From assembly GCA_020161265.1 (NCBI GenBank), contig JAIUOC010000003.1, forward strand, positions 171,024 to 235,023: a DNA stretch of 64,000 nucleotides, read 5' to 3'. Numbering within the stretch: the stretch's first letter is position 1; every line of letters starts with the position of its first letter. Of this stretch, positions 3,797-57,331 are shown piece by piece. The position numbers and the translations under genes are program-made. This DNA is from Chloroflexota bacterium (GTDB lineage Bacteria; Chloroflexota; Chloroflexia; Chloroflexales; Herpetosiphonaceae). The notes beneath the pieces are model-generated. The model did no database searches. It saw nothing but the letters and a program-made list of their open reading frames with translations, and was not told where the DNA came from.

Positions 3797-3851
3797 GAAA
3801 GGCAAAAGGCAGAAAGTAAAAGGCAAAAGGCAAAAGGCAAAAGGCAAAAGA
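3797..3851. repeat. Tandem hexamer repeat (aaaggc/aaaggca) x about 8
   Basis: Sequence aaaggcaaaaggcagaaagtaaaaggcaaaaggcaaaaggcaaaaggcaaaag. It generates spurious minus-strand ORFs 3658-4083 and 3690-4001. Confidence 0.8.
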
Positions 3852-3905
3852 AGGGCCAGCCAATGCTGAGGGAAGGTAGTATACACATTGGGGACGAGAA
3901 GCATA

Positions 3906-3996
3906 ATTCGTGCAATCCGTGCAATTCGTGGCTAAAATAATAATCCTTCGCGATCTTCGCGTTCTGCGTGGTTTCAATCCTTCGTGCGCTTCGTGG
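3906..3996. repeat. Clusters of 9-10 bp-periodic (c)ttcgtg/cttcgcg boxes (mosaic repeat module)
   Basis: attcgtgcaatccgtgcaattcgtgg at 3906-3932 and ccttcgcgatcttcgcgttctgcgtggtttcaatccttcgtgcgcttcgtgg at 3946-3996. The second is near-identical to the reverse complement of 31134-31190. Confidence 0.75.
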
Positions 3997-7520: not shown

Positions 7521-7700
7521 GGATCAGTTGTCAGGGGCTAGGGATCAGTTTGGAACTGCAAAGGATATGAGATATTGGGCTATAGGCTGTTGGCTATAGG
7601 GAAAGTATTATGGTATTTCAACGACTCTCCGATAGCCCATCGCCTAAAGCCTATAGCCTCATGCGCTCTGACCCCTGACAACTAGCCCCTGACCCCTACG
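7521..7700. repeat. Mosaic intergenic repeat instance (gtcaggggctagggatca, gctataggc, ccgatagcc and ctgacccctga modules, imperfect terminal inverted repeats)
   Basis: Shares modules with 25905-26117, 28623-28950, 31134-31300, 32766-32896 and 56987-57165. The left arm agttgtcaggggctag is mirrored by cccctgacaactagcccctgac on the right. Confidence 0.7.
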
Positions 7701-17491: not shown

Positions 17492-18493
17492 ATGGCAAAA
17501 GTAGGCCGCAACGACCCATGCCCATGTGGCAGTGGCAAAAAATATAAGCAATGTCATGAAGCAGCTGACCGTGCCCAGGAAGACCAGTTACGCTTATTAC
17601 GCCGTGCCCAAGATCGGTTGTTTCCTAAATTGATCGAGGCCACCCAAAGCGAAGAATTAGCTCCTAGCACGCCTACTCTGTTTGAGCAATATTGGGGCGG
17701 GCGCTACACTGCCGCCGATATGAGCGAGCTTGATGAGCTGGAAGATCGTGGCTCAGAGCGCTTTTTGACTTGGCTGGCCTTCGATGCCCAAAGTGGCGAC
17801 GATGGCTCAACCTTGGTCGAACGGATCGCCGCTAATCCGCCAGCTGAGCTTGAGCTTGACGAACATGAACTGAATTTATTACCAACTTGGGCTGGCATTC
17901 GCTTGCGCCCTTATCTGATTACAGAAATTATCAAGGGCAAAGGCGCGTTGATTCAAGAGGTTTTGACCAAAGAAACCTTTACCTTGCGTGACCATGCTGC
18001 CGCCAAGCGCTTGGAAGAAAATGAGCTGATTTTTGCCCACCTTGTGCCAGTTGGCGAAGAATACTACATTGCTGGCGCAGCGGCTCAAACCACGCCCGAC
18101 ACGGTAGAGAAACTTAGTGAATTCTTGGCAGTTAGCTTGGAAGATTGGCAATTGCGCAATCCTGAAGCTGATCTGAATCAGTTTGTGCGTGAAAATAGCT
18201 ACCTGTTCAATCATTTTATCTCAGTGTTGCCACGCGAAGAAAAAGAACCATCGAAGTTTGACGATTTGATGCTGCGTGGCCGCACCGCCTTGCTGATGAC
18301 CAAACAATCGCTTGGTTTGGGCGGAGCTGATGACGATGACGATGATGAAGATACTGATGACGATGATAGTGATGAATTTGACGACGATCAGGCTGATGAT
18401 GATCAAGTTGATGATGAATTTGATGACGCTGAGCAACCTGATGATGATCAAACCGAAGCGCTAACCGATTCAGACCAACAGCCAACCAAATAA
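17492..18493 (+). CDS. SEC-C motif protein with poly-acidic (D/E-rich) C-terminal tail
   Basis: N-terminal [18 protein letters not shown] (SEC-C metal-binding motif). The C-terminal 70 aa are over 60% Asp/Glu ([20 protein letters not shown]...). GGAG RBS. Confidence 0.7.
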
Positions 18494-20849: not shown

Positions 20850-22496
20850 GTGGAACCAGTGCATCACTGCCCATATGTGGGCCTTAAACAAAATCGTGCG
20901 ATTCGTTTCGCGAGTCCTACGCCGGAGCACCGCTGCTACATGACCGGAGAGGCTCACGACATCCCAGTGCCCCAAGCCTCGTTTTGCCTAAGCAGCAACC
21001 ATGTGCGTTGCCCATTATATGCAGGTGAAGATCTGCCGATTGCGCAGGTTGTCAGCACGCCTACGCCAGTTGCGGTGGGTGGTTGGCGCGGCTGGCTGGC
21101 TGGTTTATCAACCCGCGATCGCCGCATTTATGCCACCTTGGTGGGCCTACTTGGCTTAATTATTGTGGCCTATGCGATTAGCGGCGTTGTTTTATTTAGC
21201 AACCCCGATACTCCAGCCATCCCTAGCGCTACCTCGCAAGTGCTTCAGCCAACATCCGATAGCCCAACATTAACGGTCTCACCATCGCCAAATGCCTTTG
21301 CCACAGCAGCGGTTCGTCAAACTCAAACAGCCGAAGTTATTGCTCAAACCACTACCGTTACTCCCTCGGTCTCTGCTACGCCATCGGCTTCTGCAACCAC
21401 TCAGGTGATTCTTGCATCGCCAACCTTTATTATTGTACCGCCAACTGAAGATGTGATTGTAGCCTCTGCTACTCCTAGCATTCCGTTTGCCACCGATCTG
21501 CCAACCTTCGAGCCAACCTTATCGCCAATTGCCACAACTGCCGTGCCAACCATTGAGCCAACCGTCGAACCGACAGTTGAGCCAACCGTTGAACCAACCA
21601 TTGAGCCAACCGTCGAACCGACAGTTGAGCCGACTGTCGAGCCAACGCCTGAACCGATCCCTGAGCCAACTGCTCAGCCGACGGAGGAAACTGGCGGTCG
21701 CGAGGTTAATCAATTAACCTTGTTTTTTGCCGATAGCACTGGCCAAGTGTTAGTGCCAGTCTCGCGCCAGATTGCCGCAACTCGTCAGCCACGGACTGCC
21801 GCAATCCAACAGTTAATTCAAGGTGCACGTAGCGATTTGCGTAGTTTGTTGCCCAGCGATACTCAATTACTTGGGCTACGCTTGAACAACGGTATTGCTA
21901 GCGCTAATTTTAACCGTATCCCGACGTTTGGCAATTCAAGCCTAGAAGATTTAGGCTTGCGTTCAATTGTGTTGGCCTTGACTGAGCAACCAGAGATTAC
22001 GCAGGTGCAAATTCAAGTCCAAGGCCAGAATTTGGGTGGCTTGCGCTATCGTCCCAATGTCAACCCCGATAATCCGCAGGGTTTAAGTGGTCAGTTTAAC
22101 ACAACTTCGTTCTTGCCGTTATATTTTCAGCAAAGTAGTGGCCGTTGGGTGCGGGTGATGCGGCTTGTGCCAAGCACCAAAACTGAGGCCCGTGCTACCG
22201 TTGATGAACTTATTCGCGGCGCTGGCCGCTATAGTCATGTTGTTAGTAGTGCCATTCCGAGCACCAGCCAAGTGCGACGTTTGGTGATTGTTGATGGGGT
22301 TGCCCAGCTTGATCTTAGCGCTGAATTCAGCCAAACCAGCAATCCGCGTGCGGCAGTTGATGCCTTAGTATTGGCATTAACTTCGTTCAGCAGTGTGCAA
22401 CAGGTGCAGATTACGGTCGAAGGCCAAGCGCTCAGCAATATTTGGGGCGTAACATTCAGCAATCCCTTCGTTCGCCCACAACTCAACCCTGAATAG
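20850..22496 (+). CDS. Bitopic membrane protein with Cys/His-rich cytoplasmic N-terminus, (EPTV)n linker and two GerMN-like (germane) extracytoplasmic domains
   Basis: GTG start after a GAGGAA RBS. TM segment LVGLLGLIIVAYAISGVVLF. The LTLFFADSTGQVLVPVSR and VSSAIPSTSQVRRLVIVDGVAQLDLS pattern is typical of GerMN domains. Confidence 0.55.
   Translation: MEPVHHCPYVGLKQNRAIRFASPTPEHRCYMTGEAHDIPVPQASFCLSSNHVRCPLYAGEDLPIAQVVSTPTPVAVGGWRGWLAGLSTRDRRIYATLVGLLGLIIVAYAISGVVLFSNPDTPAIPSATSQVLQPTSDSPTLTVSPSPNAFATAAVRQTQTAEVIAQTTTVTPSVSATPSASATTQVILASPTFIIVPPTEDVIVASATPSIPFATDLPTFEPTLSPIATTAVPTIEPTVEPTVEPTVEPTIEPTVEPTVEPTVEPTPEPIPEPTAQPTEETGGREVNQLTLFFADSTGQVLVPVSRQIAATRQPRTAAIQQLIQGARSDLRSLLPSDTQLLGLRLNNGIASANFNRIPTFGNSSLEDLGLRSIVLALTEQPEITQVQIQVQGQNLGGLRYRPNVNPDNPQGLSGQFNTTSFLPLYFQQSSGRWVRVMRLVPSTKTEARATVDELIRGAGRYSHVVSSAIPSTSQVRRLVIVDGVAQLDLSAEFSQTSNPRAAVDALVLALTSFSSVQQVQITVEGQALSNIWGVTFSNPFVRPQLNPE
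21543..21674 (+). repeat. Intragenic 12-bp tandem repeat (gagccaaccgtc/gaaccgacagtt) x about 10, encoding (EPTV)n
   Basis: Direct reading of 21543-21674; explains the overlapping spurious ORFs at 21401-21717 in other frames. Confidence 0.85.
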
Positions 22497-22503
22497 GATT
22501 AAT

Positions 22504-22683
22504 TGGGGATCGGTTGTTGGGGGTTGGGGATCGGGAGAAGGATGAAGGATGAGGGATGAGGGATGAAATTTAACCACAAGGAATCCCAAGTACACGAATT
22601 AAAATCGTTGAATGTTTGAATTGCCACTAAAATCGAATAGAACGATCAATCCCCACTTCGTGTTCTTCGTGCTCTTCGTGGTT
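22504..22683. repeat. Mosaic intergenic repeat instance (gggatcgg, degenerate (a/g)ggatga x4, gggatgaaatttaac junction, cttcgtg x3)
   Basis: The junction gggatgaaatttaac is shared with 28770-28784. The triplet ccacttcgtgttcttcgtgctcttcgtgg is at 22655-22682. Confidence 0.75.
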
Positions 22684-24924: not shown

Positions 24925-25902
24925 GTGAGCACGACTCCTATTAGCGATTTTTTGCGCCATAACTTTCGCCACTTCAACGCGGCAGCCATGATCGATGCCA
25001 GCGATGCCTATGTGCGCCACCTTGAAAACAACGGCAAAATGATGATTACCCTTGCTGGCGCGATGAGCACCGCCGAATTGGGAATCTCGTTGGCCGAAAT
25101 GATTCGCCAAGATAAAGTGCAAATTATTTCGTGTACCGGAGCCAACCTCGAAGAAGATTTATTCAACTTAGTGGCTCACGATTACTACGAACGGGTGCCG
25201 CATTATCGCGATTTAACGCCCGATGATGAAGCTGCACTGTTGGCTCGCCATATGAATCGGGTCACCGACACCTGTATTCCCGAAGAAGAAGCCATGCGCC
25301 GCTTGGAACGCGCCTTGGTCGATGAATGGACAGCGGCTGATGCAGCAGGCGAGCGCTATTTCCCCCACGAATTTCTCTATCGAATTTTGCGCAAAGGCGT
25401 TTTAGAAGAATATTTCCAAATCGATATTAAAGATTCGTGGATGTACGCCGCGATGGAGAAAAACCTGCCAATCATCGTGCCAGGCTGGGAAGATTCAACG
25501 ACTGGCAATATGTATGCAGCTCACTGTATCCAAGGCGAAATCAAGAATATTCACACTGTGCGGACTGGGATCGAATATATGGCCTATTTGGCCGAATGGT
25601 ATATCGAAATCAGCAAAACTCATTCAATTGGCTTCTATCAAATTGGCGGCGGCATTGCTGGCGACTTCCCAATTTGTGTTGTGCCAATGTTGCACCAAGA
25701 TATGCAAATGGGCAACGTGCCAGTGTGGGGCTATTTTTGCCAAATCAGTGACTCAACGACCAGCTACGGCTCTTATTCAGGCGCAGTGCCCAACGAAAAA
25801 ATCACCTGGGGCAAATTAGAACCAACCACGCCTAAATTTATTGTCGAATCCGATGCTTCAATTGTTGCACCATTGATGTTTGCTTTGATTTTGGGGCAAT
25901 AA
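24925..25902 (+). CDS. Deoxyhypusine synthase-like protein (DHS family, bacterial short form)
   Basis: FLRHNFRHFNA...AGAMSTAELG...ISCTGANLEEDLFNL pattern, recalled as characteristic of DHS-like proteins. GTG start with an upstream agagg. Confidence 0.5.
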   Translation: MSTTPISDFLRHNFRHFNAAAMIDASDAYVRHLENNGKMMITLAGAMSTAELGISLAEMIRQDKVQIISCTGANLEEDLFNLVAHDYYERVPHYRDLTPDDEAALLARHMNRVTDTCIPEEEAMRRLERALVDEWTAADAAGERYFPHEFLYRILRKGVLEEYFQIDIKDSWMYAAMEKNLPIIVPGWEDSTTGNMYAAHCIQGEIKNIHTVRTGIEYMAYLAEWYIEISKTHSIGFYQIGGGIAGDFPICVVPMLHQDMQMGNVPVWGYFCQISDSTTSYGSYSGAVPNEKITWGKLEPTTPKFIVESDASIVAPLMFALILGQ

Positions 25903-25904
25903 AC

Positions 25905-26117
25905 AGAACATAGAGCATAGAGCATAGAACATACATTATTAACCGCGAAGAGGATATGGCTATAGGCTATGGGCTATTGGAAGATTGGTTGAAATTGCAA
26001 ATGATCCGATAGCCTATAGCCAACGTGCTCTGATCCTCTGTGTTAATGATGATCTCTGACCCCTGACCCTTAGCCCCTAACCTTACCTTCGTGCCTCTTT
26101 GTGCCCTTGGTGGATCA
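25905..26117. repeat. Mosaic intergenic repeat instance (catagag/catagaa run, gctataggc, ccgatagcc, ctgacccctga, cttcgtg-type triplet)
   Basis: acagaacatagagcatagagcatagaacata ... ctctgacccctgacccttagcccctaacc ... ccttcgtgcctctttgtgcccttggtgg. Confidence 0.75.
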
Positions 26118-26929: not shown

Positions 26930-28558
<1,629 letters not shown>

Positions 28559-28622
28559 TGCAATGCCTCCTTGCACTCCAAAACGGGGGCTGGCTCTCAG
28601 CTATCGATTTGCGCCATCATAC

Positions 28623-28950
28623 CATAGAGCATAGAACATAGAGCATAGAACATATAAGGGATGAGGGATGAGGGATGAGGGATGAGGGATGAGGGATGAG
28701 GGATGAGGGATGAGGGATGAGGGATGAGGGATGAGGGATGAGGGATGAGGGATGAGGGATGAGGGATGAGGGATGAAATTTAACGCGGCGGAGCAAAGGG
28801 TGAGGCTATAGGCTAGCGGAGCGTGGTTAAAATCCTAACATTGGTTCCGCTAGCCAAACGTCAATAGCCAAGAGCCTCAGCTTCGTGAGCTTCGTGCCCT
28901 TCGTGGATCAAAAACAACATTCCAATAGCCCATAGCCCATAGCCTATTGC
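28623..28950. repeat. Mosaic intergenic repeat instance, most complete copy (catagag run, (gggatga)17, aaatttaac junction, gctataggc, ccgctagcc, cttcgtg x3, ccaatagcccatagcccatagcc)
   Basis: Direct reading. All modules also occur at the other listed instances, in varying order and orientation. Confidence 0.85.
28658..28776. repeat. Perfect heptanucleotide microsatellite (gggatga) x17
   Basis: 119 bp of uninterrupted gggatga units, counted from the sequence. Confidence 0.95.
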
Positions 28951-28972
28951 TACTGAACCTAGCTTAATCGCG

Positions 28973-56986: not shown

Positions 56987-57165
56987 CCGCGAAGGACACA
57001 AAGGATACGAAGCTGAGGTTATAGGCTTTTGATGCTCCAACGCATCCCCGATAGCCAAAAGTCTTCAGCCCATACCCTGAAAATCAACATTTATGCTTTT
57101 CGTAGTTGAAACCATTGGTTTTATGCTCTATGTTCTATGTTCTGTGCTCTATCGTTGTTCTATCT
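56987..57165. repeat. Mosaic intergenic repeat instance (reverse orientation: cttcgtg-type, ctataggc, ccgatagcc, catagag-type run)
   Basis: ccgcgaaggacacaaaggatacgaag ... gaggttataggc ... atgctctatgttctatgttctgtgctctatcg. Confidence 0.7.
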
Positions 57166-57331
57166 TTGAACGCTCTTTGAACGCTAATCTCCAAGCGCCT
57201 GTCTATACTCACAGTCAAGCCATAATCTTCCTGAACAGCTGCGGGATAGAATTGATCCAACAACCCCGTCAGCGTTTCCAATTGAGTAATGCTTCTAAGA
57301 AGCTCGATTCTGTGTTCGAGGAGGAACGCAT

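Follow-up and report, generated by a model that had tools for sequence, protein, structure and literature searches.

How does a perfect run of 17 identical heptanucleotides come to stand between two bacterial genes, and does its length matter to either of them? The question is raised by a stretch of 64,000 nt (hereafter the window; contig JAIUOC010000003.1, positions 171,024 to 235,023) from a member of the Herpetosiphonaceae, phylum Chloroflexota, in which (GGGATGA)17 separates the gene of a DUF4938 protein from that of a long-chain fatty-acid-CoA ligase. The contig belongs to a metagenome-assembled genome (MAG) labelled 'Chloroflexi bacterium' and encodes the proteins MCA0351946 and MCA0351947. 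A preliminary description, made from the sequence alone, had seen in this array a slippage-prone locus that might alter promoter spacing and so give phase-variable expression. The answer that we favour, at a probability of roughly 65%, is that the array arose by slipped-strand expansion of one module of a genus-wide mosaic resembling the short tandemly repeated repetitive (STRR) sequences of cyanobacteria, that it lies upstream of the core promoter, and that it is no dedicated switch, its effect on expression being at most mild and dependent on distance.

The array and its alleles

Tandem Repeats Finder (TRF) reported a period-7 array of 17.1 copies with 100% matches, 0 indels and a score of 240, the top score of the 64-kb window, and direct reading of the raw sequence gave the same flawless period. 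This bears out the perfect 17-copy array of the preliminary description:

28657..28776, (TCATCCC)17 on the minus strand, (GGGATGA)17 on the plus (template) strand: perfect heptamer array (TRF and direct reading)

The minus strand, on which the unit is TCATCCC, is the sense strand of both flanking genes; the plus-strand unit is GGGATGA. Six perfect period-7 arrays of at least 2.5 copies are present in the window, five of them intergenic, vs 0.05 in shuffled windows; the same comparison singled out period 7 as the enriched class, with no comparable excess at the other periods from 5 to 12. Seventeen identical units cannot be of chance origin.

The JGI metagenome 3300003765 has two contigs that match the window with 100% identity (over 4.3 and 4.8 kb); both terminate within the array, carrying 82 nt and 100 nt of repeat. 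Because of these contigs a length of at least 14.3 copies is certain; the count of 17 is assembly-dependent and hinges on the MAG assembler's crossing of a 120-nt perfect repeat. The array accounts for the breaks of short-read assemblies at this position. An open reading frame (ORF) of 59 aa running through it (28617-28796, minus strand, SSLIPHP repeats) was rejected as coding, because the unit is stop-free on that strand, each unit shifts the frame, and relatives carry 1-5 units. A scan of the whole window against Rfam gave 0 family matches.

We compared orthologous upstream regions of five named species and of several Logan and metagenome contigs, together with two alleles whose gene order is exactly that of the window. 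Units were counted downstream of the junction GCGTTAAATT as (TCATCCY)n:

1 unit: Herpetosiphon giganteus; ERZ27251240
2 units: H. aurantiacus DSM 785; five Logan contigs
3 units: H. geysericola; SRR30202055
4 units: Herpetosiphon sp. NSE202; ERZ28654241
5 units, perfect TCATCCT: H. gulosus
17 units, perfect TCATCCC: the window

Across 11 alleles the copy number at this site is 1, 2, 3, 4, 5 or 17, the ten alleles other than that of the window having 1-5 units. In H. llansteffanensis there are 0 TCATCCY units proximally and two farther upstream. The window aligns with H. aurantiacus DSM 785 at ~95% identity over the ligase side, up to 28631. For the array itself the Logan contigs L008 and L213-L216 are uninformative: their sequence stops within the (TGTTCTATGCTCTA)2 repeat next to it, ~100 nt before the ATG.

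The array is a repeat locus of variable length, its 17 units being a lineage-specific expansion of a short seed. Because the array is completely homogeneous, without interruption, the expansion appears to be recent or continuing. In this evolutionary sense the locus is slippage-prone, as the preliminary description had supposed; the invariant copy number that it had named as speaking against its reading was not seen, units differing among strains. With 1-17 units, the locus is a highly discriminating typing marker for Herpetosiphon strains.

Predicted promoter position and the surrounding repeat mosaic

Where the array stands relative to the ligase promoter can be read from an alignment of the upstream region in nine alleles (alignment A1), which together with TRF and Pfam gives the following layout around the array:

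26930..28558, minus strand: downstream gene, long-chain fatty-acid-CoA ligase (fadD-like), 542 aa, ATG at 28558 (Pfam AMP-binding and AMP-binding_C)
28559..28609, minus strand: predicted 5' untranslated region (UTR), ~51 nt (conserved block in A1; start deduced from the -10)
28616..28624, minus strand: predicted extended -10, TGgTATGAT (alignment A1; putative function)
28623..28654, minus strand: adjacent module (TGTTCTA TGCTCTA)x2 (TRF period 14, 2.3 copies, 100%)
28777..28972, minus strand: distal spacer of other repeat modules (GCGTTAAATT junction, imperfect long hairpin, (CACGAAGnn)x3, (GGCTATG)x3)
28973..29977, minus strand: upstream gene, DUF4938 protein, 334 aa (Pfam PF16292, E = 1.4e-35)

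Across the nine alleles a near-invariant block with five variable columns extends from TATGGTATGATGG to the ATG, and upstream of the TATGGTATGATGG block everything differs, even between strains with an identical ligase protein. The block, the only conserved upstream DNA, opens at the extended -10-like TGGTATGAT. Its TGgTATGAT fits the extended -10 consensus TGnTATAAT and marks the upstream edge of the block, invariant in 9 of the 9 aligned alleles. A consensus sigma-70 scan of 28400-29100 found no canonical -35/-10 pair, which is consistent with a promoter that needs no -35 element. Transcription would start ~7 nt past the -10, around 28609, and the predicted leader carries the Shine-Dalgarno sequence AAGGAGG at 28566-28572; its fold shows no significant structure and is no better than that of shuffled sequence (z = 0.13). 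The array begins 36 nt upstream of the -10-like hexamer and would occupy about -48 to -167 of the predicted start. Because it lies upstream of the predicted extended -10, gain or loss of units cannot alter the -10/-35 spacer, and the altered promoter spacing of the preliminary description does not follow.

The 28623-28654 module separates the array from the -10 element and takes the place expected of a -35 element; its copy number varies, and other alleles have CCCCGAT units instead. Each unit of (TGTTCTA/TGCTCTA)n next to the -10 contains a TAnnnT hexamer (TATGTT or TATGCT), so that the module forms a row of -10-like sites. Equivalent modules are found in L013, L211 and L214-L216, and Logan contigs (k = 31) break there.

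The ligase matches NCBIfam PRK06187 at 624 bits (cut-off 476) and is identical in H. aurantiacus DSM 785; its gene belongs to housekeeping-type metabolism. Several details of the preliminary description need correction here. The array lies 99-218 nt before the ligase ATG at 28558, not 60-100 bp upstream of it, and 196 nt beyond the stop codon of the preceding gene rather than next to it; that gene, labelled CphA-like there, encodes a DUF4938 protein whose local match to cyanophycin synthetase is weak and sub-threshold (E = 8e-8, 31 bits vs a cut-off of 877).

The distal spacer, with TRF rows at 28879-28905 and 28925-28944, folds as RNA at -66.8 kcal/mol (z = -2.2), and its modules occur as the same set and in the same order in L210, L211 and L011. 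Within its longer imperfect hairpin is a 10-bp perfect stem, GGCTAGCGGA...TCCGCTAGCC (28806-28860, minus strand), which is kept in L210 and L211 and has a related version in L011; no U-run follows it. The scan of 28400-29100 found no intrinsic terminator between the DUF4938 stop and the array, the only terminator-like site (28998-28982) overlapping the end of the DUF4938 coding sequence.

According to TRF, the whole spacer is composed almost entirely of short tandem modules:

Heptamer modules: (TGTTCTA/TGCTCTA)n, (TCATCCY)n, (CCCCRAT)n, (TTTTGAC/TTCTGAC)n, (GGCTATR)n, (AAAGGCA)n
Further modules: nonamers (CACGAAGnn)n; motif CTCTGCGCCGCTGCGTTAAA

The same small unit set recurs in the intergenic DNA of all four other Herpetosiphon species sampled (~21 kb each), with dozens of period-7 and period-9 arrays of 2-10 copies. 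The two more distant Herpetosiphonaceae MAGs (L014, L015) contained 0 arrays of these units according to TRF. In the window and eight related loci (~190 kb sampled), 27 TCATCCY arrays of at least two units were counted, all of them intergenic and outside long ORFs and, apart from the 17 units of the window, 2-5 units long. Neighbouring heptamer modules vary as freely as the TCATCCY array. The array is thus the extreme tail of a general phenomenon and not a locus-specific device.

Two degenerate copies of 3-4 units that the description had listed elsewhere in the window are indeed present:

22537..22567, plus strand: sister array (GAAGGAT)2(GAGGGAT)2, 4.4 copies (TRF), with the same AAATTTAAC junction
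32767..32797 (approximate), plus strand: degenerate sister array (AGGATGA GGGATGA ...), 2-3 copies (TRF)

The first is G-rich on the coding strand and begins 42 nt past the stop of the preceding plus-strand gene; the second lies 34 nt upstream of the start of a minus-strand Band_7/vault-like gene. More intergenic heptamer arrays were seen at 3798-3850, 7578-7697, 25905-25977, 32878-32895 and 57118-57185, with the units AAAGGCA (x7.6), GGCTATA, CTGACCC, AGAACAT and GTTCTAT, and nonamer CTTCGTGnn arrays at 3905-3965, 22656-22680, 28879-28905 and 31159-31184. Repeats also occur in frame within coding sequence: at 21545-21646, with a period of 12/24/48 (GCCAACCGTTGA, 8.5 copies), in the ORF 20850-22496 (plus strand), and at 18327-18426, GAT/GAC-rich with a period of 9-15. 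Two genes of the window carry annotations that are unusual for bacteria, a 475-aa protein with Band_7/SPFH and Major Vault Protein shoulder and repeat matches (31305-32732, minus strand) and a deoxyhypusine synthase homologue (24925-25902, plus strand); they are conserved in H. gulosus and/or DSM 785.

The gene order of the genus breaks within about 22 nt of the array (window 28777-28800 vs L010 9880-9925 and L210 2860-2925). HSP70-MFS genes stand upstream of the ligase gene in DSM 785, H. giganteus, H. llansteffanensis, H. geysericola and NSE202, and vault-like/ADH/DUF4938 genes in the window MAG, H. gulosus and SRR30202055. Since the two gene-order types have only CTCTGCGCCGCTGCGTTAAATT(TCATCCY)n in common, the break suggests recombination between dispersed repeat modules.

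The heptamer itself reaches far beyond the genus. (TCATCCC)4 occurs in at least 120 metagenome contigs of 37-70% GC; among the contigs listed, 0 match Herpetosiphon sequence, so that they add no further alleles of the locus, and some of the arrays listed reach 11-16 units, several of them at contig ends. At least 16 contigs carry inverted pairs of the form (AGGGATG)4, a loop of 10-110 nt, and (TCATCCC)4:

Contigs with inverted pairs: L092, L106, L107, L111, L118, L132, L143, L145, L152, L164, L166, L169, L188, L192, L194, L199

These pairs are placed directly past stop codons and just before the next gene, in high-GC contigs (55-68%), and are potential hairpins with a 28-bp stem made from the same heptamer. 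Among the contigs listed (L090-L209, 603 kb), TRF returned 306 period-7 rows vs at most 65 for any other period; many of these rows are units other than GGGATGA, often as inverted pairs (TGCGGAA/TCCGCAT, GTGACAG/TGTCACC). In L170 (3484-3693), GGGATAA and GGGATGA form a compound array of ~30 copies, and L203 and L205 (GC ~42%) contain many 13-23-copy heptamer arrays of various units, with the look of cyanobacterial STRR sequences. A heptamer excess seems to be widespread in soil bacteria.

Origin and possible roles of the expansion

The favoured reading would unfold as follows. A TCATCCY seed of 1-5 units, one module of the Herpetosiphon intergenic heptamer/nonamer mosaic, may have gained the TCATCCC variant, and slipped-strand mispairing would then have grown it in one lineage to at least 14 identical units, 17 as assembled. 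Gain or loss of units would shift only the distal spacer (hairpin and other modules) relative to the promoter, with mild tuning at most, and the G-quadruplex (G4) potential of the template strand, with an i-motif opposite, would be a by-product of the T-to-C variant of the unit.

Some points weigh against this reading. Its promoter is a predicted one: if the true promoter were distal to the array, the repeat would lie in the 5' UTR, as in hmw of Haemophilus influenzae. The 17 units are far beyond the 1-5 range of the other alleles, and such an outlier could reflect selection rather than drift. The same allele, with flanks 100% identical, is present in a second assembly (JGI 3300003765), which makes it no one-off read artefact; this second allele may come from the same strain or sample as the window MAG. 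Some tuning of expression by the array could also occur.

The alternative that survives best, unlikely as we consider it, is the contingency or rheostat locus, in which slippage would change ligase expression through promoter geometry or through a transcribed 5' UTR repeat like that of hmw1A. Strains do differ in copy number (1 to 17 units), the array immediately precedes the ligase gene, and a functional 7-nt upstream repeat is known: expression of H. influenzae hmw1A/hmw2A is inversely proportional to the number of (ATCTTTC)n repeats (PMC12721329, PMC8262952), which in hmw1A act via a hairpin in the transcribed 5' UTR that RNase III cleaves (PMC12721329). Both systems have a 7-nt tandem repeat upstream of a gene, with a strain-variable copy number of more than 10 units. 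The hmw repeat, however, is transcribed, pairs with a G-rich arm and controls an adhesin, whereas the array has a predicted position upstream of the promoter, lacks a pairing partner and adjoins a metabolic gene. At -48 to -167 of the predicted start it is outside the predicted core promoter and would fall in none of the usual places of a contingency repeat (-10/-35 spacer, regulator site or leader), nor is a housekeeping-type ligase gene the surface, host-interaction or restriction-modification gene of such a locus. The variability is not locus-specific either, neighbouring modules being equally variable, and phase variation was judged unlikely for the analogous repeats of Xanthomonas and Nostoc, because their neighbours are ordinary metabolism genes (PMC4692102).

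An hmw-like hairpin in the 5' UTR was itself tried and rejected: the sense-strand RNA of the array (119 nt, 57% C, 0% G) is unstructured, with a minimum free energy of -0.9 kcal/mol, its C-rich strand is partnerless, and the UTR fold (z = 0.13) is no better than shuffled sequence.

It is improbable, too, that the array is a structural insulator, in which a template-strand G4 (with an i-motif opposite) or a rut-like RNA would impede read-through from the DUF4938 gene before it meets the fadD-like promoter. The G-quadruplex pattern seen in the preliminary description stands as far as the window is concerned: on the plus strand, the template strand for both flanking genes, the array contains four non-overlapping G3N4G3N4G3N4G3 motifs (G4Hunter 1.42), four of the five canonical G4 motifs of the whole 64 kb, and in vitro both G4 and i-motif structures are formed by repeats of the GGGAATC type (PMC4692102). 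Were transcription to read on past the DUF4938 gene, the G-free sense transcript would look like a Rho-utilisation (rut) site; no intrinsic terminator was found between that gene's stop and the array. The pattern is, however, not conserved. Relatives have AGGATGA units (G4Hunter 0.71) in arrays of at most 35 nt without G3 tracts, and those with the same gene order carry (AGGATGA)3-5, too short for a rut site. The G4 and rut-like properties are not conserved functions of the locus, because they are present only in the allele of the window.

A role of the repeat RNA as a CsrA sponge was considered as well, GGGAUGA containing A-N-GGA, and dropped, since the G-rich strand runs antisense to both genes and is framed by neither promoter nor terminator.

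We also give little credence to a dispersed mobile or protein-bound mosaic cassette, (CACGAAG)x3 - hairpin - GCGTTAAATT - (TCATCCY)n - (TGYTCTA or CCCCRAT)n, in which the array would offer a platform of multiple binding sites. At several Herpetosiphon loci the modules follow one another in this order, the synteny breakpoint is at most 22 nt from the array, (GGGATGA) arrays of four or more units, often as 4+4 inverted pairs, occur in the metagenome contigs described above, and binding of cold-shock proteins to direct repeats of heptamers, with one protein on each heptamer, has been reported (PMC4679880). Yet no transposase, target-site duplication or terminal repeat was seen, and the modules occur in many combinations rather than as one unit. 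Nor is the heptamer exceptional: four-unit arrays of control heptamers of the same composition numbered 21 and 5 (with a CCC tract) and 1, 1 and 8 (without) in viral_contigs, vs 9 for TCATCCC, and the metagenome contigs are rich in other heptamers. The recurrence of GGGATGA fits a generic bacterial tendency to heptamer arrays rather than a horizontally spread element.

Bolder, and quite improbable in our estimate, is the combination of an active, period-7-specific process or factor that makes, spreads or maintains heptamer arrays, in Herpetosiphon as in the hairpins of soil bacteria, with a 17-unit allele serving as a tunable G4 or rut-like insulator and a mosaic serving as a substrate for rearrangement. 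That the MAG assembly created or collapsed the array or its junction is hardly credible: the window is a MAG contig, identical short-read contigs break within the array, and its 120 nt are near common maximum k-mer sizes, but the JGI contigs independently join both flanks to at least 11.7 and at least 14.3 units, and both SRR30202055 and the isolate genome of H. gulosus confirm the DUF4938-fadD order, which leaves only the exact count doubtful.

Slipped-strand expansion of a mosaic module upstream of the promoter thus remains the reading that we prefer. The array alone does not reveal a new regulatory mechanism. The locus does offer a natural allele series (1, 2, 3, 4, 5 and 17 units; GG vs GGG tracts) before one conserved promoter, which can be used to ask whether repeats or G4 potential affect transcription.

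Comparison with known heptanucleotide repeats

Cyanobacterial STRR sequences, reportedly described by Mazel et al. 1990, are said to comprise several tandem heptanucleotide families scattered intergenically in a filamentous bacterium, with variable copy number, no known function and reported use as strain markers. The architecture is common to them and to the Herpetosiphon arrays, the units and phylum are not, and nothing points to common descent. STRR sequences are defined by their described units and by heterocystous cyanobacteria as hosts, whereas Herpetosiphon belongs to the Chloroflexota. The name and a Calothrix example are cited in PMC4692102.

A second parallel is the intergenic TAACTGA heptamer direct repeats of Beggiatoaceae, cyanobacteria and some Bacteroidetes (MacGregor 2015, PMC4679880). 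Like the modules found here, they are intergenic and mixed with other heptamers, contigs end within them, and they were proposed to take part in rearrangement at repeat-bearing spacers with differing gene order. Unlike the TAACTGA sets of a Beggiatoaceae genome, which adjoin start codons and overlap the ribosome-binding site, the Herpetosiphon repeats leave a conserved, repeat-free Shine-Dalgarno sequence and 5' UTR.

In the searchable literature we found no paper on heptamer repeats in Herpetosiphon, none containing GGGATGAGGGATGA, and no description of intergenic heptamer repeats in Chloroflexota. The intergenic heptamer excess, still unexplained and known from cyanobacteria, Xanthomonas and Beggiatoaceae, is now extended to this phylum.

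The third comparison, and the closest, is with the GGGAATC repeats of Xanthomonas, about 185 per genome with 2-26 units (Rehm et al. 2015, PMC4692102), and the GGGGA(C/T)T repeats of Nostoc PCC 7120, among them a perfect 26-unit array (PMC4692102). These repeats are intergenic, lie between aligned ORFs, sometimes form inverted pairs and vary in length among close relatives; no regulatory role was found for them, and a hypothesis relayed in the same paper takes the heptamer excess as a footprint of the replicative polymerase (PMC4692102). The Herpetosiphon repeats differ in several respects. Only GGGA is shared with the consensus GGGAATC or GGGGA(C/T)T, in which positions 1-4 and 6 are conserved, and GGGATGA has G at position 6, where the published logo has a conserved T. 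The host phylum is Chloroflexota, most Herpetosiphon copies are AGGATGA without a G3 tract, the unit shares the spacers with several other, unrelated heptamers and nonamers, and the start codon stands 99 nt away vs a preferred 0-50 nt. The likenesses are as many. Both kinds of repeat have a 7-nt unit that opens with a G3-4 tract followed by A, and both are dispersed and intergenic, here as the 27 TCATCCY arrays in ~190 kb of sampled loci rather than whole genomes. Tandem G3-4 units, at least four in number, yield the G3+N1-7 x4 pattern in (GGGATGA)17 as well. Co-oriented ORFs stand on both sides, with the G-rich strand as the non-coding strand upstream of an ORF, as for the array, or as the coding strand just past a stop codon, as for the sister array at 22537. 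Length and sequence vary extensively among close relatives, at this locus from 1 to 17 units in 11 alleles, ordinary metabolism genes adjoin, and in both cases a few units are usual and long perfect arrays are rare, 26 units there and 17 here.

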